This document shows, in pieces, positions 3,824-52,570 of a DNA stretch of 64,000 nucleotides; positions within the stretch are counted from its first letter, which is position 1; each line of letters starts with the position of its first letter. Position numbers and translations under genes: made by a program. The stretch comes from Escherichia virus TH47. The notes beneath the pieces are model-generated. The model ran no database searches. It saw only the letters and a program-made list of their open reading frames with translations, and was not told the origin of the DNA. Where the stretch lies: the sequence record MT446416.1. The stretch is one strand, 5' to 3'.

Positions 3824-3861
3824 GTATTCTCCTAAATGAGTAGTCACTCTAATTAATAAAC

Positions 3862-3889
3862 ATTATATCACATTCTTTGCGTTTGTCAA
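3862..3889 (-). promoter_or_regulatory. sigma70 consensus promoter (TTGACA-N16-TGaTATAAT) driving the ClpA-like gene
   Basis: minus-strand reading gives TTGACA, 16-nt spacer, extended -10 TGATATAAT, about 35 nt upstream of the ATG; same 13-nt -10 block as the two copies at 27336-27457. Confidence 0.65.
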
Positions 3890-3931
3890 CAAGGTAAATA
3901 AAGATATACCCGATTTATTTTGGAGACAAAC

Positions 3932-18891: not shown

Positions 18892-18910
18892 TAATTATAA
18901 TAAAAAAAAC

Positions 18911-18934
18911 GGTGTCATCAATTATGGTGACACC
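18911..18934. terminator. hairpin between fibre genes (A-run upstream, no T-run downstream on + strand)
   Basis: stem GGTGTCA/TGACACC; orientation best suits a minus-strand terminator or an RNA-processing structure. Confidence 0.3.
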
Positions 18935-18957
18935 ATCTTAACAAGTGAGGTAGTTAT

Positions 18958-19737: not shown

Positions 19738-19751
19738 TTTATATTTTTTTT

Positions 19752-19784
19752 AAAGGTCAACTATGGTTGGCCTTTTCTTTTATC
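19752..19784 (+). terminator. rho-independent terminator
   Basis: stem AAGGTCAAC/GTTGGCCTT (one mismatch) followed by T-rich run. Confidence 0.5.
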
Positions 19785-19829
19785 TAAAATAAATACTTAA
19801 TATATAATCTATTCTGAGGAAATATTTAA

Positions 19830-21794: not shown

Positions 21795-21801
21795 TAAAAA
21801 A

Positions 21802-21828
21802 GGGAGACATAAGTCTCCCTTTTCTTTT
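21802..21828. terminator. bidirectional rho-independent terminator
   Basis: stem GGGAGAC/GTCTCCC flanked by A-run and T-run between convergent fibre and thymidylate synthase genes. Confidence 0.65.
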
Positions 21829-22756: not shown

Positions 22757-23349
22757 TTTACGTCCTTGAAAAATGTAATAAAGTGTTCCATGTGTTTTTG
22801 TGTAGCATTACGTGAACCAATCCCAGTCCAGTTACCGTGTGGTGCTGGTATTGAGAATGTTTCAGTAAACTCTTTCAGTACTGTATCATAATAAAATACA
22901 GAGCGAGTGTTCATATCATAACAATATATTTCTGGATTATCAACTGAATCCATATACATCTGTACTGCCCATGCAGTTCCACCTGAAACTTGCGTAGGTG
23001 ATGTAATATTTGCAATACAATATACTCTTTTAGTATTAAGTATCTGATAACTATTTCTTGCAAGTAATTTATATACATACGAACCGGGCTTCGGAACTGT
23101 TCGGCGTAAAGAGTAACATGCAATGTTTAATTGTTTTAATATTGAACTATCACAAAGGATATTGGATGGAATTTCTAATATAGTATTTTCATCTACGCTG
23201 CTTTGGTGACCCTTGAATGAAAAATTTATTACTTCAAATCCATTGTCTTTTGCATAGATAGAAAAAAGGCGGTCAGCACCTGCTGCCCCGCCACTGAAAC
23301 ATACATTAGATAAACCATTGATTGCTTCATCTAATTCTATTTTATTCAT
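22753..23349 (-). CDS. Rossmann-like SLOG/DprA- or nucleoside deoxyribosyltransferase-like protein
   Basis: N-terminal glycine-rich loop CFSGGAAGADRL; translationally coupled to thymidylate synthase (ATGA overlap); family assignment tentative. Confidence 0.4.
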   Translation of the reverse strand: MNKIELDEAINGLSNVCFSGGAAGADRLFSIYAKDNGFEVINFSFKGHQSSVDENTILEIPSNILCDSSILKQLNIACYSLRRTVPKPGSYVYKLLARNSYQILNTKRVYCIANITSPTQVSGGTAWAVQMYMDSVDNPEIYCYDMNTRSVFYYDTVLKEFTETFSIPAPHGNWTGIGSRNATQKHMEHFITFFKDVK

Positions 23350-23354
23350 TTATA

Positions 23355-24008
23355 TTATTTTGCTTTACGTTCTGCAAATGCCTGTTTAACTTTCTCAATT
23401 GCTTTGGTTTGTGAAATTCCTTCTGGGATTTCAATATAGAAAGTTTTGCTATCAGGTGCTACAGGTGTTGCTTGAACTTGTGGACGTAGAGATGGTTCTA
23501 AGTTGTAAGCACGTTCAAAGTGCTCTTTAGCCAACTGCTCATAACGTTGTGCATCTTTAAGTAGTTGCTCAACAATGGTAGCTTCTTCAACAGAAGTATC
23601 AACTTCTTGTGGCTTGAATGGGTTGTATTCTTTAACTTTACCATCTTCATGTTTTTTAGTATCATTATCATTGATTGCGTTGTTTAGAACATCAAGAGAA
23701 ATCTTACTGTTTCCGCCAACATGCATATCAATATCACAAGTACGTGCACGACGCAAATGTTGTAGATTATGAAGAACATCTAGCATTTTGCGACCGTCTA
23801 GATGACCAATCTTATGCATAACTTCCCACAAATCTACATTCGATTGACCTTGATTCATTACTAAATCTGCAACAGATTGAGCATATGCTTCAGGAAGTGA
23901 GTCGCGATAAACAATGAGACAATGTTCTGGATCATCAGGGAGTGAACGCCATACCACAAATACTCGTGAACCCGTATTACGTACTACACCAACGTGACGA
24001 ATAGCCAT
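23355..24008 (-). CDS. hypothetical protein
   Basis: 217-aa ORF with strong RBS AAAGGAGAA; no motif recognised. Confidence 0.55.
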   Translation of the reverse strand: MAIRHVGVVRNTGSRVFVVWRSLPDDPEHCLIVYRDSLPEAYAQSVADLVMNQGQSNVDLWEVMHKIGHLDGRKMLDVLHNLQHLRRARTCDIDMHVGGNSKISLDVLNNAINDNDTKKHEDGKVKEYNPFKPQEVDTSVEEATIVEQLLKDAQRYEQLAKEHFERAYNLEPSLRPQVQATPVAPDSKTFYIEIPEGISQTKAIEKVKQAFAERKAK

Positions 24009-24010
24009 TA

Positions 24011-24241
24011 TTATTCTCCTTTATTTTGTTCAGCAGCAGCTTGTGCAGCATCAGCTTCTTCTTGTGCTTTGATATCTTCGAGTGCAGAGTTAGCAAACTC
24101 AACAAACTTAGATACGACTGGAGCAACATCAACAAGTTCTTCGACTTTAAATGAATTACGAGCAACAGCAGCTTCCATGATTTTAGCAGCGTTGATTAGG
24201 TCGATTAGGGTTAGTTGAATTTTTTCTGGTTCTTGTTCCAT
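24011..24241 (-). CDS. small acidic hypothetical protein
   Basis: start chosen at ATG with GGAGAG RBS (track ORF extends to 24340 across an extended -10 element at about 24272). Confidence 0.45.
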   Translation of the reverse strand: MEQEPEKIQLTLIDLINAAKIMEAAVARNSFKVEELVDVAPVVSKFVEFANSALEDIKAQEEADAAQAAAEQNKGE

Positions 24242-24350
24242 TTTAATACTCTCCATGTATGTTGTTACAAATATAATTATATCACCTTTTTCCAAGCTGT
24301 CCCGCTGAAAAAAGTAGAGAACGGAATTTTCCGTTCTCATTATTTAGTAC

Positions 24351-25760
24351 TTAGCTACGTTGACGCTTTTTGTCAGCTTCATATTCGTAGTGTACAGTTT
24401 CGCCAAATGGTGCTTGTTTGTTAGGATTACTGTGGATAACAAACAGTGTCTTACAGTAATCAGGATCACCCCATGACTGCCACGGCTCACCATCGGTAAA
24501 CATAATAAGCTGTTTAGGCTTATAGTTGTCATGCTTCATATGAACCCATACTGCTTCAAAGTCAGTACCACCACCACCTTTCACTGGATATTCGAGAATC
24601 TTACTCTCTTCACCAGTTTTGTAATCTTTAACAGTATAAACTTCAGTATCGAACGTCATGATACGGATTTTAAATTGTTTAAACTGCTTAGTGATACCCA
24701 GTACTTCACTGATGAAATCACGGAGCATATCTTCAGAGATAGAACCGGATGCATCTAGTGCAATTGCAATATCAATATCATCATCTGGTTTCATGCCTGG
24801 GAAGATTGGATTCCCGTAGAATGAACCAGTACTACCAAAACCAGCACCCCATGAACGACGATTAGGACTTTGATAAGTTGCGTCAGACTTCAACCAGCTA
24901 CGCAGTGTGCGGTGAAGTTTGGAACGCCAGTCAATCTTAGGTTCTTTGAAGTTGTTAATCATACGTGCGATTTCAGCAGGAGTACCACCTGCACGAGCAG
25001 CATTCATCATTGCTGTTTTGAAATCATCCATATAATCACGTTTTTGTTTATCACTTGAACCACCTTCTTGACCTTCTTGTGGAACGTCATGCTGGTCGAT
25101 TGTTGTACCTTTGCCTTTACCATCTTTGATATCACCAAAAGTACCGCGTGATTTACCTTCACCCTCACCACTACCAGCCTGTGGATTTCCTTCACCTTCC
25201 CCGTCTTGATCCTGTTTATCTTCTTCTTCGAGAATGTTATAAATCTCTTCAGCAGTCATACCATCGTACTTTTTATCGTACAGCCATTGGCTTTGGATTT
25301 TACCAATTTTATCACGAACAAGAATCTGGTTAATTGCATAGTCAGCAGCACGGTTATAACGCTGCGGGTCACGCATACCACGACGCAAGAAGTGGTCATA
25401 TGCACAGTGAAGAATCTCATGACAGATAACTGCAATCAGGTTTTCATCAGTCAAACCTTCTGTCATTTCTTTAAGTTGTTCTTCAGTTACTTCAGGATGT
25501 TTCTCACGAATTGCTTCTTCGTATGCGGACTTTTTGGATTGGTCCTGAATACCCATGATGAATTCTACGTTGTAGAATAAATGCTTACCATCTACTGCCA
25601 AAGTACGACACCATGTATTGTTTGCAACTGGACGCAGACGAGAAGCCAGTACACCAAAGAATGGGAATGTTAGCATTAAAGATGTGCGAGCTAAGATCAG
25701 ACGATCTTGACATTCTTTCTGGAGAGCCGGAGTAACATCACTGAAACGTTTATCTGACAT
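24351..25760 (-). CDS. vWA-domain protein with N-terminal HExxH metallopeptidase-like domain (CobT-like)
   Basis: HEILHCAYDH (HExxH) plus MIDAS DASGS in DIDIAIALDASGSISEDM; GAGGAAA RBS; directly downstream of the AAA5 ATPase. Confidence 0.75.
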   Translation of the reverse strand: MSDKRFSDVTPALQKECQDRLILARTSLMLTFPFFGVLASRLRPVANNTWCRTLAVDGKHLFYNVEFIMGIQDQSKKSAYEEAIREKHPEVTEEQLKEMTEGLTDENLIAVICHEILHCAYDHFLRRGMRDPQRYNRAADYAINQILVRDKIGKIQSQWLYDKKYDGMTAEEIYNILEEEDKQDQDGEGEGNPQAGSGEGEGKSRGTFGDIKDGKGKGTTIDQHDVPQEGQEGGSSDKQKRDYMDDFKTAMMNAARAGGTPAEIARMINNFKEPKIDWRSKLHRTLRSWLKSDATYQSPNRRSWGAGFGSTGSFYGNPIFPGMKPDDDIDIAIALDASGSISEDMLRDFISEVLGITKQFKQFKIRIMTFDTEVYTVKDYKTGEESKILEYPVKGGGGTDFEAVWVHMKHDNYKPKQLIMFTDGEPWQSWGDPDYCKTLFVIHSNPNKQAPFGETVHYEYEADKKRQRS

Positions 25761-25835
25761 TTGTATTTCCTCGTTTAGTTAAGATAAAAGAAGGATACCA
25801 TGTGGTATCCTCCTTGTCAACACTCTTTTTAATTA

Positions 25836-27164
25836 TTAACCAAGAGAGCGTGCTTTACGTACTAGGTCAGAGTACTTCATAACGAAGTCTTTAAACGCTG
25901 GTACATCTTTAATCGTAATCGCTACTTTATGAAGCGTGATGGTACGAATCGCCAGTACTGCCAGTTCTGCTTGAGTTGCAGAGAAGTTATGGTCTAGGAA
26001 GGTGATGAAGTTGTTGCACAGCTTACCCCAATCTTCCACTGGTAGACGTTGTTCTTGCTTCTCATTGTAGAGGTCGATAATTTTGTAAACCAGATTCAGA
26101 GTGATGAAGTAGTTCGCGGAAATATCAAGCGAAGCATCAATCTCTTTAATCTCACCCTGTAGGATGGACATGGTATCTGGTAGTTTAGCTACGTTATCAA
26201 CATACTCGATGTATTCAGTTGCTACGCCTTCACCAACACGACCTGCAATCATCGCACGGAACACTTCTTTATCAATGTTCTTAACTTTCTTCAGATCTTC
26301 GTAGCGTGCTACTGCTTCCCATGAACGTGGAGAAGTACCACCACAGTGAGAAGGATCTTGTGGGCTAAGGGTGTTGAAGTGTTTAGCACCAGTGTTGTTG
26401 ATGAACGCAACAGTTGCTGGGTTCAAACGCTTGCCAATCGCATAATCGTTAATCCAATCTTGATGATAAGGAATCATTTCGATGTGGGTCATACGGTCAC
26501 GCAGTGGTGTAGCTAGAGAGAACGTTACACCGCCATCAGTTTCACGGTTACCTGCTGCGAGAATCAGTGCAGTCTTAGGTAGCTTCATCTCACCAACACA
26601 ACGGTCGAGGATTAGCTGGTAAGACGCTGCCTGTACAATCGGCATTGCAGAGTTGATTTCGTCAAACAGGATAACACCTTTCCAATCATCGGGCAATTTC
26701 AGTACTTTTGGTGCTGCCCACACAACTGCTGTTTCAGCGATGTAATCTTGTGCACTAGCCAGTTCAGATTCAATCAGTTGCTTACCATCCATATCAAGGA
26801 ACACTTTCTCTGGAACTGGAATACCACGAAGGTCACTTGGTTCAATCTGAGACAAACGGAAATCGATAAAGTTAGTGTCTTGGTCGATTAGTTTGGCTTC
26901 AAACGCTGCCAGTTCACGGCGAAGTTGATCGGCATTTTCAGTATCAGCTTCGATTTGTTGTTTCATGAACTCAATTTTTGCCACGTTATCTTTACGCAGT
27001 GGGTAGTTCTCATCAGCGTATTGACGTGCGATAGCAGATTTACCGATACCAGGGCTACCCCAAATCATCAGGCTATCTTGAATCATGTCAGCCAGTGCCA
27101 TTGCTTCTTTAGCTTTCTTAGGAGTCAGTTTTACGTTCAGGATATCGTTGTTTTGAGTAGACAT
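25836..27164 (-). CDS. MoxR/CobS-type AAA+ ATPase (AAA_5 family)
   Basis: Walker A GSPGIGKS, Walker B ILFDEINSA; AAGGAAA RBS. Confidence 0.8.
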   Translation of the reverse strand: MSTQNNDILNVKLTPKKAKEAMALADMIQDSLMIWGSPGIGKSAIARQYADENYPLRKDNVAKIEFMKQQIEADTENADQLRRELAAFEAKLIDQDTNFIDFRLSQIEPSDLRGIPVPEKVFLDMDGKQLIESELASAQDYIAETAVVWAAPKVLKLPDDWKGVILFDEINSAMPIVQAASYQLILDRCVGEMKLPKTALILAAGNRETDGGVTFSLATPLRDRMTHIEMIPYHQDWINDYAIGKRLNPATVAFINNTGAKHFNTLSPQDPSHCGGTSPRSWEAVARYEDLKKVKNIDKEVFRAMIAGRVGEGVATEYIEYVDNVAKLPDTMSILQGEIKEIDASLDISANYFITLNLVYKIIDLYNEKQEQRLPVEDWGKLCNNFITFLDHNFSATQAELAVLAIRTITLHKVAITIKDVPAFKDFVMKYSDLVRKARSLG

Positions 27165-27230
27165 GTATATTTTCCTTTTGTTGGATAAAATCGTTTAGGT
27201 TTCTATTATAGCCAATCCGTGGGCAAAAGT

Positions 27231-27273
27231 AAAGGAACTGTGTTAAAAGAATTTTTAACTTATCAGTTCCTTT
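27231..27273 (-). promoter_or_regulatory. extended palindromic hairpin in the 5' leader of the AAA5 ATPase operon
   Basis: perfect 10-bp stem AAAGGAACTG/CAGTTCCTTT enclosing an inner 7-bp palindrome GTTAAAA/TTTTAAC; lies between the promoters and the start codon. Confidence 0.5.
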
Positions 27274-27335
27274 GTTACTTCATGAATCATCCGTGTATTT
27301 AAAAAGGCATTTCTCTTTGCCGTCTTGATGTGGTC

Positions 27336-27363
27336 ATTATATCACATCGTTCAGGCTTGTCAA
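27336..27363 (-). promoter_or_regulatory. sigma70 consensus promoter, proximal copy (TTGACA-N16-TGaTATAAT)
   Basis: exact -35 and extended -10 with 16-nt spacer and A-rich UP-like tract upstream on the minus strand. Confidence 0.65.
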
Positions 27364-27429
27364 CAACTTTTTTTTATTTCTTTTTCAATCTCACATCTTG
27401 TGATTTTGAAAACTTGCTTCGTGGTGGTC

Positions 27430-27457
27430 ATTATATCACATCATTCGGCGTTGTCAA
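27430..27457 (-). promoter_or_regulatory. sigma70 consensus promoter, distal tandem copy
   Basis: second copy of the same CATTATATCACAT-N8-TTGTCAACA module 94 nt upstream of the first. Confidence 0.65.
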
Positions 27458-27484
27458 CATCTTTTTTTTTCTTTATTTTCGAAG

Positions 27485-27862
27485 CTACATGTGCATCGAA
27501 ATTAACATTCTAAAATCATCACCACACAATGTTAACTCTGTAACTATCATTGCGTCAGAGAGGTATATGTACTGCCCTTCAACATAGTAGGGTGAAGTAC
27601 ATATCCTATCAAGCGATGTAAAGATTATAGAACTTTTGAACTCTCTTTGCAAGGGGATTTTTGTAAATTCGTAAAGAATGTTTTCTTTACAAATTGTATA
27701 TCCAAACTTGCTAAGTCTTAAACCACCGCCAGTTCTGAAATTTTCAAAAATTGACATCAGAAGCATACGGTCTGTTAATTCAGCGTCTGATCCATGTACT
27801 TCTCTAACTTTTAAAAGTACATCGTTTTGAAATTCAGTACTGTTGTGTGGTTCAGGGATCAT
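27485..27862 (-). CDS. hypothetical protein
   Basis: 125-aa ORF, ATG start overlapping upstream stop. Confidence 0.5.
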   Translation of the reverse strand: MIPEPHNSTEFQNDVLLKVREVHGSDAELTDRMLLMSIFENFRTGGGLRLSKFGYTICKENILYEFTKIPLQREFKSSIIFTSLDRICTSPYYVEGQYIYLSDAMIVTELTLCGDDFRMLISMHM

Positions 27863-27865
27863 ATA

Positions 27866-28258
27866 TTACATCCCCACAAAACCCTGTCTTGCTGCATATG
27901 AAGGAGCATCTTTAACTTTATAGTCTTGGACACCATCTTTACCAATTTTCGGACCCATATCTTTGGTTCCGAAGCAGCAATCAGTGGATTCATCAACTTC
28001 TTCAGTACTTTCATCATTATATCGAACATCCGATAAAATGTCACACGCTTTTTGAAGCTTTTCTACGATTTCTTTTTGATCTTCACCTGATTTAACCTTA
28101 TCCACAATGTGGATAAGGCATTCGGTGATATCTTTAAGTAAATCGGTGGCTACAGCATCAGAAGGAGTCTCAACTGCAAAACTTTCTTCTTCAGTAGATT
28201 CTTCACTAGAAGTGATTTCATCTAATGCTTCAACCAATTCACGATAATTATATCCCAT
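27866..28258 (-). CDS. hypothetical acidic protein
   Basis: 130-aa ORF in tight operon packing. Confidence 0.5.
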   Translation of the reverse strand: MGYNYRELVEALDEITSSEESTEEESFAVETPSDAVATDLLKDITECLIHIVDKVKSGEDQKEIVEKLQKACDILSDVRYNDESTEEVDESTDCCFGTKDMGPKIGKDGVQDYKVKDAPSYAARQGFVGM

Positions 28259-28259
28259 C

Positions 28260-29249
28260 TTATTTGTCCCCTAGAAATTGTTGATATTTCTTCTGGAGAC
28301 TTTCGAAAATGTCTTCGACTTCTTCATCGCTTTCATCTTCTAGTTCTTCGTTACCTTCCACGGACTCATCACTCTCATTAACATTGAGTGGGTTGTCACC
28401 TAGAGCAGTACCTGGAAACTTAGGTTCAAATTTGTGAACACGGTTCTCGTTACCGTCATTGTCATAGTACTCTGGTTCAGGACGATTGTCAACATCTTCA
28501 TCAACGACACGTCTCCAGTAGAACTTGTTACCCTTGGTAATAACAACAAAGTGGTCACCTTCTACACCATTAGTTTTAGCTTGACCGTCACGAACGGCAT
28601 CAGCTTCAGTGTTGTAAGGTCCAAAATCAGTACTGTCACCTTGTTCTTCATCTTCAGAGATGGTTAGGTCTGGTAGGAAAGTGTTTTCTTCAACTTTAAC
28701 TTCAGTATCTGGGTTACCTTCTACTGAATATTCATCTTCTGGTTCGTCTTGAAGACCAGCTAGAGATAGCATACGACTGAAATCGAATTCTTCTTCGATG
28801 ATTTCTTCTTCTTCCTCTTCTTCAACTGATTCTAGTTGAGGTTGACCGGAAAGATCTAAAGAAAACTCTTCTTCATCTGCAACCCCAGGCTCTTCGAACT
28901 CTGCATCCATACTTACTTCTTCAGAATCACCACCAAAATCACCAGCTTCAGCAGATAGTGAGTCAGCAGCTACTTCCAATGGGTCTTCAACTGGTGCATC
29001 AATCGCACCATCCATTGCACCACCAACTTCTTCTTCAGCACCAGCACCAATGGAATCCATGTCGAGTGGAGCGATTGGTGGTAGAGAAGGGGTCATAGAC
29101 CCCATAGAAGGAACTGGAGCAGCAACAGGAGAAGCTTGACGCTCTGCTTGACCAGCTAATGCAAGCATACGAGATAGTGTTTCTAGATCTTCAGATTCTA
29201 GACCTGCGATATCGATTTTAACTTGTGCTTCATTAATTTTTTTAGCCAT
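28260..29249 (-). CDS. highly acidic low-complexity protein (scaffold/internal-protein-like)
   Basis: 329 aa with long Glu/Asp-rich tracts; AAGGA RBS; function inferred only from composition and position. Confidence 0.5.
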   Translation of the reverse strand: MAKKINEAQVKIDIAGLESEDLETLSRMLALAGQAERQASPVAAPVPSMGSMTPSLPPIAPLDMDSIGAGAEEEVGGAMDGAIDAPVEDPLEVAADSLSAEAGDFGGDSEEVSMDAEFEEPGVADEEEFSLDLSGQPQLESVEEEEEEEIIEEEFDFSRMLSLAGLQDEPEDEYSVEGNPDTEVKVEENTFLPDLTISEDEEQGDSTDFGPYNTEADAVRDGQAKTNGVEGDHFVVITKGNKFYWRRVVDEDVDNRPEPEYYDNDGNENRVHKFEPKFPGTALGDNPLNVNESDESVEGNEELEDESDEEVEDIFESLQKKYQQFLGDK

Positions 29250-29271
29250 TTTAAATAAATCCTTTTAGTTA

Positions 29272-39706: not shown

Positions 39707-41701
39707 TTAATATTTTTTTGTGTATTTTATATTACCAGAGTTGTAAATCTTATAATATCCCAATACATCACAGCAAATTTGTCTCTCAGTTAAGTTAATA
39801 TCATGACCTTTCTTGACCAATTTATGTTTTTGACATTTCTGACGTGAAATCCTCTCATGTGTTTGTGGGTCATAATAAAAATATCCGGGTTCTGTATAGC
39901 TATCAAACTCAAAGCCAAGAACTGTATAAAGATCACCACTACTCCAATCCATATCCGCATATGTCAATAATGATTGTGGATTATATACTGTTTCAAAATA
40001 TTTTAGTAATTTTGATGCACCACCAACAACTGTACCGGATGAACAGTATCTGATTAATTCATATTCATAGTTTTTATCAAACCTTGATTTACCAAAGGTC
40101 ATAACTGCAACTAAATCACTTCCATAGTAAAGTCCAATGTGAATACTTGCTTGTGCAACACCTTGAATATGGTGTGATTTAGTAAACATATTACTTACTT
40201 GTTTGTCTATATTTCTAACAGTACATTTTCTAGCATAAATTCTATTTGACACTAGAAGTTTATTCTTTAAACGTTCCTTGATAATTTTATTTGTTAATGG
40301 GTTATCCCATTCATCTTCATAAATGTGAATAAGATTCACCCCATGTTTTAAACAATCCAATACCTTATCTTGATGTTTAGTGGAATTTACATTTTCATCA
40401 TTATGCCAATACACACCATTAAATTCAATAGCTAGATTACGGTCTGGGATATACACATCCAACTCTTTAGGTTTCAGCACTGAACGGTCGTTTTCTATAA
40501 TTTGCATATTTTGTATTAATGATTTTATATAATCAACTAAATCTTTCTCTTTCAATGAATGACCATTATTTTTCTGACACTTACATTTCACTTTATGATT
40601 TTTATACTTACTATAAAACAATTCATCACAATACTCACACCAAAATGGGTATTCGTCTGTATTAACTTTCATCATTAGGTCGGTGTTTTCAAATAATGGA
40701 ATATAGTTTTTATCAATATTTGCAACAATGATATTATATCTTTCGTCTAGACGAGCAAGTGACATTTTCTCTTTATACTCATCAGTCTGTGAGTAGTGTT
40801 CTGAACCATATCTATTTTTTGTGGTTTCTTTCATTTTTTCAATGATAGAATTATTTTGGGCTGGGTGTTTTACACCATATCGCTCCACATTGGTATTATG
40901 AACTTTTTCCTGAACACTCATATTGCTCATTGGGTAAAATGAATTATACTTCAACGTGTTGGTGTTTTTTATTTTATCTTGGACAATTTTATTTGATAGT
41001 GGATTGCCACCATATCGTTCAAGATTTGTTTTATTGATTTTTTCACGAATCGTCGGTGATGATAAAGAATACTCAGCACCGTATCTTAATATATTTGTGT
41101 TTTTGGCTTTCTCTTTTACTTCATTTCTTTTGCTTTGGAATTCAACACCATACTTTTTTAAATTTGTTGCTTTTACTTTATTGAATATTTCAGAGTTTTG
41201 GTTTGGATATTCACAACCATATCGCTCTATATTAGTTTGTTTGATTTTATCTTTAGTTTCTGATGTTTGTAAATTAGATGAGACACCATAACGCTCAATG
41301 TTAGTTTTTTCTTTCTTTTGTTTTACTTCTTGTATTTGGGACACATTAGATACACCATACATATCCATTAATGTTGATTTTGTTTTATTAGTTCGATTTT
41401 TATAATACATTTCATGGCATACATTACATGTATTTTTCTTATTAATCACATAGTCATCACAAAATTTATAAAATCCTTTTTGGAAATTTTTGTATCTTGC
41501 TTTTTTTCCGCAATATGCAGTTGGAACGGTTGTTATATCATTCATGAACATATATAGAATTTTATATATTTCGAAATCAGTTTTTGGTTCTATTCCAAAA
41601 GTAGAAAGGAGAACCCTCACACGAGAGTCCCCTTTGTATAAATGTACCCATGAATTAATATGTTTTGACAACAAAAGTTTTTTTAATTCTTCATTGTTCA
41701 T
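39707..41701 (-). CDS. repeat-rich endonuclease-like protein with Vsr/DUF559-type PD-(D/E)xK domain (homing-endonuclease candidate)
   Basis: nine tandem ~29-aa repeats with core TN(I/L)ERYG; Cys cluster CEYCDELF...CKC; motif LDVYIPDRNLAIEFNGVYWH. Confidence 0.55.
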   Translation of the reverse strand: MNNEELKKLLLSKHINSWVHLYKGDSRVRVLLSTFGIEPKTDFEIYKILYMFMNDITTVPTAYCGKKARYKNFQKGFYKFCDDYVINKKNTCNVCHEMYYKNRTNKTKSTLMDMYGVSNVSQIQEVKQKKEKTNIERYGVSSNLQTSETKDKIKQTNIERYGCEYPNQNSEIFNKVKATNLKKYGVEFQSKRNEVKEKAKNTNILRYGAEYSLSSPTIREKINKTNLERYGGNPLSNKIVQDKIKNTNTLKYNSFYPMSNMSVQEKVHNTNVERYGVKHPAQNNSIIEKMKETTKNRYGSEHYSQTDEYKEKMSLARLDERYNIIVANIDKNYIPLFENTDLMMKVNTDEYPFWCEYCDELFYSKYKNHKVKCKCQKNNGHSLKEKDLVDYIKSLIQNMQIIENDRSVLKPKELDVYIPDRNLAIEFNGVYWHNDENVNSTKHQDKVLDCLKHGVNLIHIYEDEWDNPLTNKIIKERLKNKLLVSNRIYARKCTVRNIDKQVSNMFTKSHHIQGVAQASIHIGLYYGSDLVAVMTFGKSRFDKNYEYELIRYCSSGTVVGGASKLLKYFETVYNPQSLLTYADMDWSSGDLYTVLGFEFDSYTEPGYFYYDPQTHERISRQKCQKHKLVKKGHDINLTERQICCDVLGYYKIYNSGNIKYTKKY
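40624..41389 (-). repeat. nine tandem ~87-nt coding repeats (ERYG repeats)
   Basis: periodic K.K.TN.ERYG....Q motif in the translated product. Confidence 0.6.
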
Positions 41702-43482: not shown

Positions 43483-43501
43483 TTTTGTCAAGTCCTTTTG
43501 T

Positions 43502-43978
43502 TTATTTTATAATGTATAAGTGTTTTTCTGCATTAACCAGTCTGTGGTCAATGATTTCTTTGATAACGTTCCAGTTACCACCGCCTAAATCGGCTCCAAT
43601 TTTCGGGAAGTGTACATGAACAGTGCGTTCAACGTTACATAAGTAATTGAGTTGTTTGAAAACATCATCGATTGCATCATAACTCACATACTTAGAACCG
43701 TCATTACCATAGTACTTTTGGGTAATGCAGTTTGCGATAAGCAAATCATCACTTATAGAAGAATATGAAATTTGTCCTGTTCTTAGAAATCCCATTTCCT
43801 TTTCATATGCTTTATAATCATCATATGCCATCGGGTAACGATTTCTTAGTTCTTTTGCAAAACCCGAACCCATCTTACCCTGTGCATTACAACCATGAGC
43901 GATTATATGCAACGCGGTTTGATCATCAGTAACAGTGTTGAACAATTCAAACAAATTACCTAGGTGTTCATGTATCAT
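43502..43978 (-). CDS. macrodomain protein, TARG1/OARD1-like (ADP-ribose processing)
   Basis: motifs GNLF, LHIIAHGCNAQGKMGSGFA and FPKIGADLGGGNW align with TARG1 LAHCISEDCRMGAGIA and MPRIGCGLDRLQW; GGAGAA RBS. Confidence 0.75.
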   Translation of the reverse strand: MIHEHLGNLFELFNTVTDDQTALHIIAHGCNAQGKMGSGFAKELRNRYPMAYDDYKAYEKEMGFLRTGQISYSSISDDLLIANCITQKYYGNDGSKYVSYDAIDDVFKQLNYLCNVERTVHVHFPKIGADLGGGNWNVIKEIIDHRLVNAEKHLYIIK

Positions 43979-44029
43979 TATATTCTCCGAAAAGAAAGGA
44001 CTCTGTAATCAGAGTCCTTAATTTATATT

Positions 44030-44272
44030 TTATTCTTCTTCACCGAATCGAATTTTTTTCAATTCTTTTCGTTGTTTGCGAGCAATGGTACTTTTGTGAA
44101 GTCTATTACCACGTTTTGTGTCTTTCGTGATGTACCATGAATCTTCTGGTGCATTATAATCACAATAACCATCTTCTGTAATCGTCCCTAAGAAAGCAGA
44201 CTTTTTAGGAATGGATGTTTGAGCTTTAGCAGCGAATTGGCCTTTTGCTAATTGTTCACGAAAACTGAGCAT
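44030..44272 (-). CDS. hypothetical basic protein
   Basis: start at ATG with GGGAGA RBS (track begins at TTG 44287). Confidence 0.45.
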   Translation of the reverse strand: MLSFREQLAKGQFAAKAQTSIPKKSAFLGTITEDGYCDYNAPEDSWYITKDTKRGNRLHKSTIARKQRKELKKIRFGEEE

Positions 44273-44317
44273 AATAGTATCTCCCAAATTGTTACGAAGA
44301 ACTTGTGTTCTTCATTA

Positions 44318-44560
44318 TTATTTAGGGTTGCTCGAAACCTCTACTGAAGCGATGAATGCCAAAATATCATCTTTACTGAAAGCTTCAATAATATAAGCAA
44401 CCGCTTTATCGTACTGTTCTTTCTTAGTAGTGTATTCTTTCATTTTGTGAATTTTACGTTGTGCTTTAACTTTTGCAGCTTCCATATCAGGCATTTTAAA
44501 TTCAACACCCAATGTGTCAGCTAAATGTTTTGCACGAGATGATACTTTATCAATATTCAT
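44318..44560 (-). CDS. hypothetical protein
   Basis: 80-aa ORF coupled to glutaredoxin gene. Confidence 0.45.
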   Translation of the reverse strand: MNIDKVSSRAKHLADTLGVEFKMPDMEAAKVKAQRKIHKMKEYTTKKEQYDKAVAYIIEAFSKDDILAFIASVEVSSNPK

Positions 44561-44808
44561 TAATTCCAGCGACCTTCTTTAAGACCTTCAACGAAACCAG
44601 TACAGCCACCTGGAACGTAAACATCGTTTACGAAAATTTGTGGAACCTGTCGTACTGGCTCGCCACATAGTTCAGATAGTTTAGCACCATCAATACCAGC
44701 GGTAACAATATCGATAAACTCCATATCAAATTTGTTATTTTCACATACTGCTTTTGCAGTGTCGCAGAATTTACAACCAGTAGTGCGACCATAAATTTTA
44801 ACTTTCAT
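44560..44808 (-). CDS. glutaredoxin/thioredoxin-like protein
   Basis: 82 aa with N-terminal CKFC redox motif and Grx-like length; AAGGGAAA RBS. Confidence 0.65.
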   Translation of the reverse strand: MKVKIYGRTTGCKFCDTAKAVCENNKFDMEFIDIVTAGIDGAKLSELCGEPVRQVPQIFVNDVYVPGGCTGFVEGLKEGRWN

Positions 44809-45208
44809 TTCTTTTCCCTTTATTTCGTTGAAACATCGTAACAGCCTTTATTATACTGTTACACATTCGTTCAGTCAAATACTTTTGACAATCTAGTACA
44901 TCAATGTACATGAACTTATCCAATTCTGGGTGACTTCTACCATATCGGTTTGTGTAAGTACTCTTACACTCTAACTCTTCTGGTATAGGCTTATCTTTGG
45001 CTGTATAGAAAAATAAAACTAAACGTTTCCCCTTTCTATACGATACATCACCAAGAAACAGAAGATCATCTTCATCGATTTCATATCCTGTCTCTTCGTA
45101 GCATTCGCGAACAGCAGCCTCTTTAAATGTTTCTGTACCTTCAGTTTTACCTTTAGGTAAGTCCCAGTGATTCTGTCCGTGTTGTATGCCCGATAAGTAT
45201 CTGACCAT
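44798..45208 (-). CDS. Nudix hydrolase (second copy)
   Basis: Nudix box GKTEGTETFKEAAVRECYEETG; short N-terminus, start uncertain (GTG/ATG at 45211/45208); extended -10 TGGTATAAT just upstream. Confidence 0.65.
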   Translation of the reverse strand: MVRYLSGIQHGQNHWDLPKGKTEGTETFKEAAVRECYEETGYEIDEDDLLFLGDVSYRKGKRLVLFFYTAKDKPIPEELECKSTYTNRYGRSHPELDKFMYIDVLDCQKYLTERMCNSIIKAVTMFQRNKGKRNES

Positions 45209-45317
45209 CACGATAAAATATTATACCACAACTATAACGCATAATCTTATCTCTTTATCATCAAGTGATGTTCAGATACTAGTAATTATATCAGAAGATG
45301 TTAACTTGTCCCAGCTT

Positions 45318-46433
45318 TTAGAACATTTGCTTGATTGCTTCAATACGCAATTCAGCAACAAAATCACGAATCTCTGATGTTTGGAGTTCACCATCTTTCA
45401 CTAACTGCTGAATATCAGGTAATTCAACATCAGTATAACGATCATAAACTTTAATAATCAAATCTTCAAGATCAGAATCAATTTCTTTGTTCAAAATGAA
45501 GTTTTCCAGTACTTTGTAAAGGAAATCTTCGCCACCATTGTTTTTGATATTCATCTCCAGTAAGATTTGTCCCATTTCAACGGGGGTCTTCTTACGGAAG
45601 GTTTTAATATCTTCACGGAAACGCTTGATGTAATTACTAAACTTCACGTACTTAACTGGAACCTTAATAGAACCATTAAGTACTGAATCATTATTTACTT
45701 CTTCATTTTCAAGAAGTACTGTCCATAAGAAATATGGTTTATATTCTTCTGTACAATTTGCAGCGATAGCATCAATTAATTCCAGACGTTTCTTGGTAAC
45801 TGGAACTGTAGTAAATGCCTTTTCGTAATAACCAAATTGTACCAGAGTTTTGATAAACTTGGAAGGGTTTTCTTCAGAAAGTGCTTTTTCGAATTCAACA
45901 AAAACACGATCTGGAACTAGATGGTCTAGTTCACCAGTACTAACCATATCTTTACACATTGTCATAGTATCATCATGGATTGTAAAGTCTGAGTAACGTG
46001 TAGCGAAACGTGCCAAACGTAGTACACGCAATGGATCTTCTTTAAAGTGTTCTGATACATGACGAAGTACTTTGTTCTTGATATCAGCTTTCCCGCCATA
46101 AGGGTCGATGTGAATCTGGAGTACTGGATCATACGCTATGCTATTTACCGTAATATCCCTTCTGTATAGATCTTGCTCTAGTGTCACGCCTTTAGTATTC
46201 ACTTCGAAGCCACCGTAGCCAGTACCAGTTTTACGTTCGGTACGTGCCAATGCGTGCTCATTACCCTCTGGACTTAGATACACTGGAAAATCCTTACCTA
46301 CTTGCTTATAGCCAATACTTTGTAAGTACTTAATATCGGATTCGGTAGCACCGACAATGACATAATCTTTGTCTTTTGCACGAATACCCATTAAACGGTC
46401 CCTCACATAGCCGCCCACCAAATACTTTTTCAT
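45318..46433 (-). CDS. tRNA nucleotidyltransferase (CCA-adding enzyme) / poly(A) polymerase head-domain protein
   Basis: N-terminal GGYVRDRLMG, DKDY and RRDITVNSIAYD motifs; GAGGAAGG RBS. Confidence 0.8.
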   Translation of the reverse strand: MKKYLVGGYVRDRLMGIRAKDKDYVIVGATESDIKYLQSIGYKQVGKDFPVYLSPEGNEHALARTERKTGTGYGGFEVNTKGVTLEQDLYRRDITVNSIAYDPVLQIHIDPYGGKADIKNKVLRHVSEHFKEDPLRVLRLARFATRYSDFTIHDDTMTMCKDMVSTGELDHLVPDRVFVEFEKALSEENPSKFIKTLVQFGYYEKAFTTVPVTKKRLELIDAIAANCTEEYKPYFLWTVLLENEEVNNDSVLNGSIKVPVKYVKFSNYIKRFREDIKTFRKKTPVEMGQILLEMNIKNNGGEDFLYKVLENFILNKEIDSDLEDLIIKVYDRYTDVELPDIQQLVKDGELQTSEIRDFVAELRIEAIKQMF

Positions 46434-47497
46434 AATATACCTTCCTCTGAAAGATGTTTTTTTAATACAGTTAAGTGGTCTTCATAATATGTTACACGTA
46501 TTAATTTAATAAAATTCTTTTCACAATATTGTGTCTTTATAGTATCGTTATCCTTGATGTTTTTCAATTTATCTTCTCCACCCCAATGAGGTGATTTCTC
46601 AAAATGTTGTTTACCATCATACTCAATACAAATATCATAATCAACCAAATAAAAATCAAATCTTAATAACATTTTATTTTTACAGTCACTAAATGTTTGT
46701 TCTTTATTAAATTTTATACCATTTTCAATTAAAAAACGTGTTATTTCTCTACTAGCTCTGGATTCAGTATGTTCAGATGAGCATATTGGGCAACCTTGTT
46801 TTTTATTTTTTGCTATATGAAAATTTGGAATGATATAAAAAGAATTATTATGTTTTTTACAAATTATTTCAACATGAGTGCTACTATTAATGTAGATGAC
46901 TTTTGAATAGTCATATACATTACCATGAATTTCTTTTGCTCGTTCAACAAATTCAGCGGTGGTGAATGCGTGTGCTAATCTGGTTTTTTCAAATCGACAA
47001 ATAGAGCAACCCTGACCACTTTGTATATTACTAATTTCCATTTCATCAACGTGACCACATTTTAAGCATTTATAAGTTAATTTGGTTCTTTTATCTTTAA
47101 TTATTGGTTGTTCTAAAAGTAATTCACATTCACCAGTCATTAGACTTTTTGAAGTCTTATAAAGATAATATCTATAATTTGCATTGTCATATTTCCCAAT
47201 GATATATTTCATACCTTTCGTTTTTATATCATTTATATTTCTTTTTGTATATATAATACCATCTTTTTCAACAACAGTTCTTGTAAAACTAGATTTCCAT
47301 TCATCACTTGATGTTATAGCAAATCCTAAAATATTATATCCTTTTTCTATTATTTCTTCAAAATGTTCTTTAGGTGTTTTTGATGTTTTAATTAATTTTG
47401 GTGATAAATCTTCGGGACGCATCCATTCGAAACGCATACCTAATTCTTCATGGAAATATACCTTCTCGTTATTTTCATTAAAATAAAATTTATACAT
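46430..47497 (-). CDS. Vsr/DUF559-type endonuclease-like protein with zinc ribbon (homing-endonuclease candidate)
   Basis: CLKCGH...CSIC and CPIC Cys pairs; C-terminal LLRFDFYLVDYDICIEYDGKQHFE resembles DUF559 endonuclease motif. Confidence 0.5.
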   Translation of the reverse strand: MYKFYFNENNEKVYFHEELGMRFEWMRPEDLSPKLIKTSKTPKEHFEEIIEKGYNILGFAITSSDEWKSSFTRTVVEKDGIIYTKRNINDIKTKGMKYIIGKYDNANYRYYLYKTSKSLMTGECELLLEQPIIKDKRTKLTYKCLKCGHVDEMEISNIQSGQGCSICRFEKTRLAHAFTTAEFVERAKEIHGNVYDYSKVIYINSSTHVEIICKKHNNSFYIIPNFHIAKNKKQGCPICSSEHTESRASREITRFLIENGIKFNKEQTFSDCKNKMLLRFDFYLVDYDICIEYDGKQHFEKSPHWGGEDKLKNIKDNDTIKTQYCEKNFIKLIRVTYYEDHLTVLKKHLSEEGIL

Positions 47498-47508
47498 TTT
47501 CTAATCTT

Positions 47509-47640
47509 ATTCCCCCATCAACCAATCAAGCAAATGTTCCCAGAATCCTTTAGGCTTATATTCTGGGTATTCATATTCATCAGTTCCTTGTTCGGAAACA
47601 CCCCAATCTTCTTCTAATACTGTAACCACAATGCCTCCAA
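47509..47640 (-). CDS. possible small protein (GTG start)
   Basis: 43-codon ORF with GGAGG RBS filling the gap between genes; not in ORF track. Confidence 0.2.
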
Positions 47641-48063
47641 TTAAATCAATCTGTCACGTAGACGGTCGTAATATTTTGCATGTATATCTAGTATACACTG
47701 AAATGATGGATAGTCAATACTAAATGTATCATCAATGAACATGTACTGATCAAGTGTTTCAGGACCATTATCAACAACTGGCAATGAACCTTCTTTTTTT
47801 GACAGTGTGTTCCACATCAACTCACATGTAGTATCGAAAATTGCGTATGTTAATTCTATCTTACTTTTTCTAAGTGTAATTAATAATTCATCATTCTCTT
47901 CTAACGAGTTTCGTATTTTTATACGTACAGTACCCTGAAATTTATTAGTGGTTAGTACTCTATATTGATTATACGAAATTATACCTCGTATTTCAGTACT
48001 GATTTCTTGTTCAGAAAAGAACCTTACTGTACTGTGGAAATTTGGTATTTTACGAATGTCCAT
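47641..48063 (-). CDS. hypothetical protein, paralogue A
   Basis: shares C-terminal motif YMFIDDTFSIDY with adjacent gene. Confidence 0.5.
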   Translation of the reverse strand: MDIRKIPNFHSTVRFFSEQEISTEIRGIISYNQYRVLTTNKFQGTVRIKIRNSLEENDELLITLRKSKIELTYAIFDTTCELMWNTLSKKEGSLPVVDNGPETLDQYMFIDDTFSIDYPSFQCILDIHAKYYDRLRDRLI

Positions 48064-48457
48064 TCAAATTCCTTTCGTATATATGGTATACGTTCATTAT
48101 ACTATTATATAGATCAAAGTCAAATCCAAATGTGTCATCAATGAACTGATATTGTAGATATTCTTCATATGAAGCATCAATTGGTAATGAGCCATTACGC
48201 ACATCATCTGATTTAAAATCGTCAATGTATCTTAATGTTATGTCTTCATCAACCGTGATATCTATCATCAACGTATCGTCACTGTACCATAGGTTGTGTA
48301 TACGGATGTAAAGTCTCTTAGCACGATTAAACCAAGATACATTGGTATAGCGATGAAGTTTGTCTAAATTGAAGAAAAAACCTGACTCGTTCTTACTTAT
48401 GTTTTTAATATGTTCTGCAATCGGTTCAATTATATGAACAATGTTGAATGTTTTCAT
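48050..48457 (-). CDS. hypothetical protein, paralogue B
   Basis: C-terminal motif YQFIDDTFGFDF; start at ATG coupled to upstream stop (TTATGA). Confidence 0.5.
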   Translation of the reverse strand: MKTFNIVHIIEPIAEHIKNISKNESGFFFNLDKLHRYTNVSWFNRAKRLYIRIHNLWYSDDTLMIDITVDEDITLRYIDDFKSDDVRNGSLPIDASYEEYLQYQFIDDTFGFDFDLYNSIMNVYHIYERNLNGHS

Positions 48458-48639
48458 AAACAAATCTCATAACGGTTTGTGTTTGGATTGTAGCAATAGG
48501 TATCATTAATTTTAACACCAGGTTTAAGTGTGATGGTTGTACCTACTTCAGTACTGGGTTCCGCATCACAGTAAATCATCACACCAACTCCTGCGAGTAA
48601 GGCTATGATACATACAATTACACATATGGTATATTCCAT
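48454..48639 (-). CDS. small single-pass membrane protein
   Basis: 61 aa with hydrophobic helix CVIVCIIALLAGVGVMIY; GAGGAA RBS. Confidence 0.5.
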   Translation of the reverse strand: MEYTICVIVCIIALLAGVGVMIYCDAEPSTEVGTTITLKPGVKINDTYCYNPNTNRYEICL

Positions 48640-48652
48640 TTCAATTCCTCGG

Positions 48653-49045
48653 TTATAAAAAGTAATTGTACATTTTATTGTACAATATAAAAAGGTCTTT
48701 CACATTATCATAAGTAATATTAGATACATCATGAATTAATGATAACTGAAAAAATGATGCTTCGTCTATATCTACTGGGATTATAACATCATCGTCTTCG
48801 TCCATTTTATTGGTGTAGTATTTTATGTGATCAGCATTCATCTCAATAGAGAACGCAAGGTTGGATTTTGTATAATCTTCAATTAATCCGATAAATTTAG
48901 ATTTTTCATTAATAAAAAATCCAATCCCAAAACAACGGTTATCTGAATATGGATAGTACCATCTATTAAAAACTAGGCTTTCAGGTAAATCATCATCATG
49001 TGTTGATACGAGAGATTTTACTACATCTACCCAAACATAATTCAT
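48653..49045 (-). CDS. hypothetical protein
   Basis: 130-aa ORF with GGAG RBS. Confidence 0.5.
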   Translation of the reverse strand: MNYVWVDVVKSLVSTHDDDLPESLVFNRWYYPYSDNRCFGIGFFINEKSKFIGLIEDYTKSNLAFSIEMNADHIKYYTNKMDEDDDVIIPVDIDEASFFQLSLIHDVSNITYDNVKDLFILYNKMYNYFL

Positions 49046-49098
49046 AATTAAAACTCCATAAGAAAAGGGACAGAATTAATCTGTCCCTTTATTATATC

Positions 49099-49431
49099 TT
49101 ACTCTTCGTCTTCAGTCAAGTCTTCTTGAACTGGATGTTCTGGGTGGTTACGGCGATGCAATTTGATGCTTTTGTCTTTACCTAAGACAGTTTCCATTTT
49201 TTCAAATGAATCACCAATTGCTTTGTATAAATCTGCATCATCGGCTGTAACACTCTTACCGCCTGATGTTAAAGTTACGGAATATTGGTTCTTATGCTCT
49301 TTCTTCACATGAACACCAATATGCAGTACTGAAGAATCACTAAACTTCGTTAGTGCATTTGCTTCAGCATGAATTGCGTCATTGATTGCTGGAGTAATAT
49401 CAACATTACCTTGGATAACTAAATCTAGCAT
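49099..49431 (-). CDS. hpf: ribosome hibernation promoting factor / RaiA-like protein
   Basis: aligns along its length with HPF/YfiA (IQGNVDIT.A, VHVKKE, TLTSGG, DLYKAIGD, KLHRRNH); AAGGTAGG RBS. Confidence 0.8.
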   Translation of the reverse strand: MLDLVIQGNVDITPAINDAIHAEANALTKFSDSSVLHIGVHVKKEHKNQYSVTLTSGGKSVTADDADLYKAIGDSFEKMETVLGKDKSIKLHRRNHPEHPVQEDLTEDEE

Positions 49432-49455
49432 AATTTACCTACCTTTTTTTTAGTT

Positions 49456-50382
49456 TTAAAGATTACTAACTAACAATTCTGCACGGTTTCCTACTTGACG
49501 ATACCATAGAGAATTCTTAATTTCTTTTTTGAACTTGTTATCATTTTGATTATCAACGCTTTTCCATAATTTATTGAAAGTATTTAACTTATCAACTCCT
49601 AATGTAAATGCCATCTCAAATAAAATTCGTTGTTGTTCAGCCGTAAGGTTTGTTGCATTTCTTTTCTTCAATAATAAAACTAAATCATTATTAGTTCGTT
49701 CCATGTCAGACAATAAAAGTTTATGTGCTTGTGACTTCGTAATACCATTACGATACTTACTTGCATCTGATTCTTTCTTTCCAAGATAATGTCCGTACCC
49801 AATAGTGAAGTTACCTTTTATATCACGATACGGATAAAATTTAGAATTTCGATATGGAACTCCAACTTTCCCACCAAGTAAACGTCGTTTGTTCTTGGAC
49901 TGAAATTCAATAGAACCTTCAGCTTCTTTGATGTGATTGACAATTTCTGGATCTTTATAATCAAACAGTACAGTCACATCTGGTAACAATACGTGCTTCA
50001 AATCCTCTTTTGTTGGGATAAAGATACCCTGAGAAGTATGAAGAGTTGCATTTAAGTTGATGTTCTTCAACAAAATGACATAATCTTCAATCTGTACATT
50101 TTTAGGTTTAAATTTCTGTGCAATAGAATAATAACTATCACCAGGTTGAACCGTATAATGTTTCTCGCTGCTTGGAACTGCTTTTGGTACTGATACCTTT
50201 GGTAGTTCCTGCTTTTGAATTTGAGTAAACTGTGGTTTTAAATTATGCACCTGACTTTCGTCTAATGATGGTACATGATCACTTTGAGAAAAACCATAAA
50301 ATCCAATAGCAGCGAATAGGGCTGATGAAACTAATACGCCTACGGCAATTTTAGTTTTCAGTGCTTTTTTCGCTTTTTTCAA
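49456..50382 (-). CDS. signal-anchored LysM + T4-lysozyme-like (GH24-type) protein, endolysin candidate
   Basis: TTG start after AAAGGAGG RBS; N-terminal basic stretch then helix IAVGVLVSSALFAAIGFYGF; LysM-like YTVQPGDSYYSIAQKF; C-terminal FTIGYGH...LWYRQVGNRAELL resembles T4 lysozyme. Confidence 0.65.
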   Translation of the reverse strand: MKKAKKALKTKIAVGVLVSSALFAAIGFYGFSQSDHVPSLDESQVHNLKPQFTQIQKQELPKVSVPKAVPSSEKHYTVQPGDSYYSIAQKFKPKNVQIEDYVILLKNINLNATLHTSQGIFIPTKEDLKHVLLPDVTVLFDYKDPEIVNHIKEAEGSIEFQSKNKRRLLGGKVGVPYRNSKFYPYRDIKGNFTIGYGHYLGKKESDASKYRNGITKSQAHKLLLSDMERTNNDLVLLLKKRNATNLTAEQQRILFEMAFTLGVDKLNTFNKLWKSVDNQNDNKFKKEIKNSLWYRQVGNRAELLVSNL

Positions 50383-50498
50383 AACGCCTCCTTTGTTGGT
50401 TGTTAACAATGAGCAATCACAAAGAGGGCAAAGAGGCCATTTGCAAAAGCCTCATTGGACTTTCTACAGTACTCAGTTGTTCTTTGGAACATTTAAGT

Positions 50499-50526
50499 AG
50501 TATAGCATACTTTTTAGTTATATCAA
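50499..50526 (-). promoter_or_regulatory. sigma70-like promoter upstream of the lysozyme gene
   Basis: minus strand TTGATA-N16-TATACT; about 110-nt leader containing hairpin GAGGC..GCCTC. Confidence 0.4.
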
Positions 50527-50549
50527 GACCTATTTACCAAATAACCACA

Positions 50550-50960
50550 TTAATCGTAATATGTTCTACCAATGGTGATGTGATATTTGAAATATTTAGA
50601 TGCTAAACCAAGTTCATCACGAATTTGTGCAATGAAATCATCTTCAAACTCTATGATAAAGAATGACCCAGGTTTCTTATTGTCTTTTACTTCTTCGATG
50701 AAAGGTTCGAACTTAATCTTAACTTTCATACCATCGTACTTTTTCCAGTACTCTGGATTTGGTGGCACTTCACCACGAACGATACTGACATGTGCTCCCC
50801 ATTGGGGGTCTTTAATATCAATATGTAAGTCAGTTCTGATGAAGTACTGGTAGTATCGAACCAACTGTAATGGAAGTTGCAGTACTAACCAGAAGTCCTT
50901 CTTCTTTTTCATAGTGCCACGATCTGGATCATACACCAGAGTTCCTTCCATTTCAATCAT
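50550..50960 (-). CDS. 2H phosphoesterase family protein (LigT/Acb1-like)
   Basis: two H-x-(S/T)-x motifs, GAHVSIV and YHITIG, about 70 aa apart in a 136-aa protein. Confidence 0.6.
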   Translation of the reverse strand: MIEMEGTLVYDPDRGTMKKKKDFWLVLQLPLQLVRYYQYFIRTDLHIDIKDPQWGAHVSIVRGEVPPNPEYWKKYDGMKVKIKFEPFIEEVKDNKKPGSFFIIEFEDDFIAQIRDELGLASKYFKYHITIGRTYYD

Positions 50961-52527: not shown

Positions 52528-52570
52528 ATAGATACCTTAAAAAGACCCCACATAGTGAGGTCAAACACTT

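Follow-up and report, generated by a model that had tools for sequence, protein, structure and literature searches.

What does the small protein encoded at 50550-50960 of this jumbo phage genome do with its two histidine motifs, and is it an Acb1? The window, i.e. the whole 64,000-nucleotide stretch of Escherichia virus TH47 (record MT446416.1) that was analysed, comes from a jumbo coliphage of the 121Q/PBECO4 type, genus Asteriusvirus, and the 4 kb around the gene are 97% identical to Ecwhy_1. A preliminary description of this DNA had placed here a compact 2H phosphoesterase of 136 residues with the motifs HVSI and HITI, and had proposed it as an Acb1-like candidate for degrading cyclic nucleotide defence signals, with 2',3'-cyclic phosphate processing in tRNA repair as another possibility. 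The reading frame is as described there, with an ATG start and with the stop codon included in its coordinates (Table 1).

Only three histidines are present in the protein, H46, H57 and H127. H57 (in HVSI) and H127 (in HITI) are separated by 70 residues, compared with 69 residues between H44 and H113 of T4 Acb1. We searched composition-preserving shuffles of the window protein for two H-hydrophobic-S/T-hydrophobic motifs 55-95 residues apart, and such a pair appeared in one of 200,000. Among the 87 open frames with 100 or more residues in the six frames of the whole window, the 2H ORF alone harbours one. When 77 homologues sharing 25-54% identity with the window protein were aligned, only the columns of H57 and H127 proved invariant, with T129 conserved at more than 90% and S59 matching the consensus; an alignment of 15 close homologues has H57, S59, R62, G63, E64, H127, T129, G131, R132 and T133 as invariant positions. 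The HVSI/HITI pair is real and far beyond chance, in agreement with the preliminary description.

Table 1. Positions in the window of the 2H gene, its motifs and the surrounding features
Feature	Position	Strand	Remarks
136-aa stand-alone 2H phosphoesterase ORF (2H-SAK-like clade)	50550..50960	-	Orthologue of 121Q gp531
First catalytic motif, H57-V-S59-I-V-R62-G-E	50769..50792	-	H57 invariant; R62/G63 conserved
Second catalytic motif, H127-I-T129-I-G-R132-T	50562..50582	-	H127 invariant; T129 >90% conserved
Terminator-like hairpin upstream of the gene block	52544..52562	-	Matches terminator annotated in phage UE-S1
LysM + T4-type lysozyme gene	49456..50409	-	Immediately downstream of 2H gene, 140-nt gap
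HPF/RaiA-type ribosome hibernation factor homologue	49099..49431	-	PF02482, E 5e-11
11-bp palindromic terminator-like hairpin	49064..49090	.	Right after HPF gene; matches UE-S1 annotated terminator
CCA-adding tRNA nucleotidyltransferase	45318..46433	-	4.1 kb downstream of 2H gene
Nudix hydrolase, candidate ADP-ribose pyrophosphatase	44798..45211	-	NudE-like in 121Q
Putative Macro (Appr-1''-p processing) protein	43502..43978	-	Pfam 20.3 bits vs cutoff 22

The preliminary description had taken the absence of a 2H fold, together with that of cyclic (oligo)nucleotide hydrolysis, as a refutation; we found the pseudo-symmetric, two-lobed alpha+beta fold that is a feature of the 2H superfamily. Foldseek searches yielded no PDB match at E<=1e-3, with TM scores of only ~0.4 to LigT and Usb1, and in BFVD one self-like fragment and weak 2H matches, nothing else. 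Neither the single protein nor the 77-sequence profile reached a 2H structure when searched by sequence against the PDB, all matches being due to chance. The lack of a significant structural match, the low TM scores, the failure of the family profile to reach a solved 2H structure and the length of the protein, unusually short for a 2H enzyme, favour a degenerate or non-catalytic 2H-like protein, such as an RNA- or nucleotide-binding factor, or a 2'-5' ligase, which we regard as highly improbable.

The sole Pfam family matched by the window protein is PF22547, 2H-SAK (E 5.9e-5), with a score of 23.8 bits for a gathering cutoff of 27 and with residues 91-136 alone, in the C-terminal half, being aligned. 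Among its relatives, 64 of 77 match this family at E<=0.01 (best E 1e-8), precomputed PF22547.3 matches exist for 23 of 25 close homologues, and orthologues at 55-60% identity carry the automatic UniProt name 'Swiss Army Knife 2H phosphoesterase domain-containing protein'. By its sequence, the window protein lies at the periphery of Pfam 2H-SAK. It has no match in NCBIfam, and the function of its PHROG match, 12204, is listed as unknown.

As summarized in PMC7824862 from Burroughs & Aravind 2016, 2H-SAK is the 2H domain of Swiss-Army-Knife RNA-repair proteins. Relative to the domain as outlined in that summary, the window protein shares a minimal length, an end right after the second HxT and a predicted role in RNA end healing, but it stands alone, whereas the SAK domain is described as part of multidomain proteins. 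No SAK-type HAD phosphatase is found beside the 2H gene. For that role we considered gp61, the stand-alone HAD phosphatase found in 121Q, and rejected it, as it is NT5C-like. The 2H proteins of group 2.2 jumbo phages have been described as 2',3'-cyclic phosphate specialists (PMC7824862), and two surveys of 2021-22 already predicted the clade to be a 2',3'-cyclic-phosphate enzyme.

Full-length tblastn matches at 26-100% identity were collected in 76 phage records, nearly all of jumbo phages; the carriers include the Rak2-like group, GAP32, CBB, XbC2, a 349-kb Vibrio phage, Atu_ph07, Bacillus phage G and RsoM2USA. The homologues are nearly always annotated as hypothetical, and the exact window protein is already public as a 'hypothetical protein'. 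In a search of 1.84 billion representative proteins, the family profile matched 899 clusters, defined at 50% identity, with E<=1e-3, and for 318 the match reached E<=1e-10; most are stand-alone proteins of 130-170 residues. Most of the 73 IMG/VR loci of the family are on contigs of 200-600 kb, and a scan of 185,579 representative genomes of bacteria and archaea with the family pattern, which is fairly strict, found no match. This distribution is suggestive of a phage-restricted clade devoid of cellular members.

In several GenBank records (PBECO4, JNE01, CMSTMSU), the 2H gene is annotated only as fragments of 45-103 residues; for PBECO4 and JNE01, tblastn showed the frame to be full-length, suggesting inconsistent gene calls or local sequencing errors. 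In the metagenomic representative P0042 (335 residues), a 2H-SAK-like domain occupies residues 5-154 and is followed at the C terminus by a tRNA-binding domain of the YqeY/GatB type (E 4e-17); the fusion may be genuine or result from an erroneous gene call.

Membership of the Acb1 family failed by Pfam model, by profile-profile alignment, by the lid and by coexistence. The Pfam Acb1 model (PF23474) did not match the window protein or any of its 77 relatives at E<=10, and the genuine Acb1 ORF of locus L056, used as a positive control with the same library, scored 71.2 bits. Alignment of the family with 15 Acb1 sequences by hhalign gave a probability of 26% over 38 columns, and it paired lobe 2 of the 2H-SAK-like family with lobe 1 of Acb1, a match accounted for entirely by the fact that the 2H fold is internally duplicated. 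In Acb1, a lid formed by residues 145-152 closes over the ligand (PMC9117128); only 9 residues follow H127 in the window protein, as against ~39 after H113 in Acb1. The bona fide Acb1 gene of L056/L057 (14799-15308, minus strand; 71 bits for PF23474 and 32% identity to T4 Acb1) is 4.4 kb from the 2H-SAK-like gene and on the opposite strand, so that two 2H families occur in one region. Yersinia phage fHe-Yen9-04 also encodes an orthologue of the window protein and a separate protein named Acb1 by UniProt. A local Acb1 HMM run over the window and all of 121Q detected no recognizable Acb1.

More generally, Acb1 (T4 gp57B, Erwinia phage FBB1; PDB 7T27) has no sequence or profile kinship with the window protein, which has a longer N-terminal segment with its own conserved G-x3-YDP-x-R signature. 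The motif contexts also differ, HxSxxRGE and HxTxGR in the window protein as opposed to HSTICYSR and PHITLSYN in Acb1. The initial interpretation is partly supported: the 2H phosphoesterase stands, given the motifs and the fold, and membership of the Acb1 family must be given up, given the model, hhalign, the lid and the coexistence.

These failed tests lower the probability that the protein is an Acb1 and leave standing that it works like one. A functional analogue outside the Acb1 family would cleave 3'-5' cyclic oligonucleotide signals of CBASS, possibly also those of type III CRISPR systems, through a 2',3'-cyclic phosphate intermediate, and would thereby blunt abortive-infection signalling; we consider it unlikely. 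It is likewise doubtful that the ~900-cluster clade represents a second viral 2H family besides and independent of Acb1, whose members break down nucleotide-based immune signals of the host, be they cyclic oligonucleotides or a cyclic phosphate derived from ADP-ribose. If so, Acb1 and the clade would coexist in some genomes because their substrate spectra differ, and the clade would replace Acb1 in 121Q-like phages, which are devoid of Acb1 and have Pnkp and Rnl1 for RNA healing.

Other 2H systems were also compared. The LigT_PEase signature (PF02834) does not match the window protein and matches two of its 77 relatives at ~1e-3. LigT/ThpR enzymes (E. coli 5LDI, P. horikoshii 1VGJ, D. radiodurans 5H7F) are 30-50 residues longer and are cellular, whereas the clade of the window protein appears to be phage-only. 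No sequence kinship was found with the cyclic phosphodiesterase (CPDase) for ADP-ribose 1'',2''-cyclic phosphate (Appr>p) from A. thaliana (1FSI), which belongs to a yeast and plant pathway continued by Macro (Poa1-type) and Nudix enzymes. By comparison with that pathway, 121Q has no annotated KptA/Tpt1 to make Appr>p, only a Sir2, and the Macro assignment is weak.

We then turn to the genes around the 2H gene in this lineage. The hairpins listed in Table 1 bracket a putative eight-gene unit composed of five small ORFs and the 2H, lysozyme and HPF genes; the one at 49064-49090 could terminate transcription in both directions. A scan for sigma-70 promoters performed at chance level (62 found versus 57.6 expected) and hence was not used. 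The gap between the 2H and lysozyme genes (50410-50549) contains a long hairpin that folds somewhat better than shuffles (z -2.1) and a promoter-like site with an extended -10 (50526-50499), and a separate promoter or a processing site may serve the lysozyme gene there.

Farther downstream, a glutaredoxin gene is located between the Nudix and Macro genes on the same strand, and the 121Q orthologue of the putative Macro protein bears the RefSeq name macro domain protein. This gene order is kept across the Rak2-like clade, with the CCA-adding enzyme and the Nudix hydrolase each in 13 of 14 loci and the Macro gene in 12 of 14, 5.1-6.6 kb downstream of the 2H gene. No tRNA genes or Rfam families were found in the window.

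Reading of the whole 121Q genome revealed a T4-type Rnl1 (gp438), a Pnkp with a HAD phosphatase domain (gp443), an RlaP RNA-repair nucleotidyltransferase (gp506), a PTH2 annotated as 'hydrolase' (gp458) and an adjacent pair of Sir2 and Nudt16-like Nudix genes (gp476-477). Rnl1 and Pnkp are ~50 kb from the 2H gene of 121Q, and all these RNA/tRNA maintenance genes are 13-50 kb away from it. They are scattered over ~40 kb (positions 1797-4965, 9638-10054, 20175-21472 and 40061-41290 of locus L082).

In T4, the 2H gene 57B (Acb1; 3953-4411 of locus L002) is just upstream of the tRNA cluster. It is also within a few kilobases of nudE and of the lysozyme gene e. The block at 43500-50960 of the window, with its 2H, T4-type lysozyme, tRNA enzyme and NudE-like Nudix genes, has a gene set resembling that of T4, which may represent old synteny or a coincidence.

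For a broader census of neighbours, the ORFs within 10 kb on either side of the 2H gene in 76 loci were clustered, and the loci were sorted into 26 synteny groups. The linked families are always coded on the strand of the 2H gene. NADAR proteins are linked in 8 of the 26 groups and adjoin the 2H gene in two loci, the Nudix subfamily of the window in six, and the CCA-adding enzyme in five; RNA ligases, which form two unrelated PF09414 clusters, are also linked in five groups, with gaps of 0.7-6.1 kb. A His_Phos_1 phosphatase is linked in a single group, where it immediately follows the 2H gene and is itself followed by an RNA ligase. With one representative per lineage, the domains found within 3 kb include RNA_ligase, NUDIX and Nuc_deoxyri_tr2 (three times each) and PARG (twice), and in phage G a Macro gene is 3 kb downstream of the 2H gene. 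In the distal control region, at 6-10 kb, no RNA ligase was visible, and NADAR, NUDIX, NMNAT-like, NAMPT, CCA-adding enzyme and YqeY genes were present. Several recurrent neighbour clusters correspond to homing endonucleases and represent noise.

By rough reasoning, a single-copy gene in a 350-kb genome has a ~4% chance of falling within ~6.5 kb of another gene; the links were observed in 19-31% of the groups, which by this rough estimate indicates real clustering. However, no tight operonic partner of the 2H gene emerged from the 76 loci, the links being loose and lineage-dependent. Since the lineages are partly dependent and jumbo phages pool auxiliary genes regionally, the context is suggestive rather than operonic. 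With that reservation, RNA repair and the clean-up of ADP-ribose are the functions to which the neighbouring genes point.

A lineage of huge phages (loci L065-L076) shows the gene order EF-Ts homologue, 2H, histidine phosphatase, HNH endonuclease, RNA ligase and NAMPT (e.g. EF-Ts at 8158-9150 of L076 and His_Phos_1 at 10396-11061 of L075). With a translation elongation factor encoded by the phage at its side, this block may represent a heal-and-seal cassette.

The same census bears on the idea of a small-molecule scavenger or signal quencher acting apart from RNA repair, with NADAR, Macro/PARG and Nudix enzymes as partners, whose targets would be 2',3'-cNMPs in free form or some other cyclic phosphate, derived from ADP-ribose or NAD, that serves as a host immune signal or toxin. 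NADAR being the most frequently linked family and the recurrence of Nudix, PARG, Macro, NAMPT and NMNAT genes in the same regions argue for it, but genes of the NADAR, Nudix and NAMPT types also occur in the distal control, such that their linkage may reflect a shared auxiliary region, and the links with RNA ligase, CCA-adding enzyme and YqeY genes point to RNA. In addition, the known gcADPR signals of Thoeris systems contain glycosidic linkages rather than phosphodiester rings, which counts against a quencher. On balance, we find it quite unlikely.

Our best explanation, to which we give somewhat less than even confidence, is that the window protein may act as a cyclic phosphodiesterase on RNA>p, on Appr>p or on both. 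It would be a catalytically intact, metal-independent 2H enzyme of a phage-restricted, minimal 'Swiss-Army-Knife' clade, with His57 and His127 as the general acid and base and with Ser59/Thr129 and Arg62/Arg132 holding the phosphate. Its substrates would be five-membered cyclic phosphates, opened by hydrolysis. Host metal-independent nucleases would generate 2',3'>p ends on tRNA or RNA, which the 2H enzyme would open to a 2'-phosphate. Removal of this phosphate with NAD+ by KptA, or possibly by Sir2, would produce Appr>p, which the 2H enzyme would in turn open to Appr-1''p. The Macro protein and then the Nudix hydrolase would complete the breakdown of Appr-1''p, and the CCA-adding enzyme encoded downstream, or a ligase, would rebuild the RNA. 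The 2H gene of this phage would accordingly be part of a translation-maintenance and NAD/ADP-ribose clean-up block. This mechanism fits both the genes that make up the block and what the two surveys predicted; beyond the conserved 2H site in its neighbourhood, we infer all of its steps, and hence the substrate, product and biological role of the protein.

The main argument against the cyclic phosphodiesterase is the presence of Pnkp and Rnl1 in this lineage, as in T4, whose only 2H protein is Acb1. With Pnkp and Rnl1, 2',3'>p ends can be healed in 121Q without the 2H enzyme. The neighbour links, which span kilobases and concern 5-8 of the 26 groups, are located in a region rich in auxiliary genes, distal control included. 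Also unfavourable are the missing annotation of an Appr>p source in 121Q, the Macro match below the Pfam threshold and the score of the window protein under the PF22547 gathering cutoff.

The fold, the Pfam 2H-SAK family and the predicted role of the 2H proteins of jumbo phages were already known from databases and the literature. Our analysis supports the ORF, the conservation of the catalytic tetrad, the 2H fold, the family placement and the gene neighbourhoods. New are the firm 2H assignment for an Asteriusvirus protein annotated as hypothetical, the rejection of Acb1 membership, the coexistence of Acb1 and the 2H-SAK-like clade in the same genomes, and the neighbourhood census; the main gain at present is the replacement of a 'hypothetical protein' by a supported 2H phosphoesterase annotation. 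The members of the clade, which is small and apparently phage-only, are easy to express and have a clear catalytic tetrad. If RNA-end healing proves true, the 2H enzyme, the CCA-adding enzyme and the Macro and Nudix proteins would form an NAD-linked route of tRNA 3'-end repair distinct from the classic Pnkp/Rnl1 pathway of T4. Signal degradation, if true, would define a new anti-defence family and be considerably more interesting.

A few additional features of these genomes are of note. Between a pair of paralogues and the CCA-enzyme gene, the minus strand of the window encodes a 355-residue ORF with a treble-clef zinc finger (DUF4379; 46430-47497) that overlaps the start of the CCA-enzyme gene by 4 nt. 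At the corresponding place, 121Q and UE-S1 carry no more than an ORF of ~40 residues, so that the DUF4379 ORF appears to have been inserted, possibly as a mobile gene resembling a homing endonuclease. The apparent paralogues, two tandem ORFs of 140 and 137 residues (47641-48463, minus strand), have a common C-terminal '...FIDDTF...' segment, and the 130-residue ORF at 48653-49045 may be related to them. Outside the window, 121Q harbours a tandem array of ~15 consecutive, paralogous RCC1-like genes (17089-31255 of locus L080, minus strand), on the strand opposite to their surroundings.
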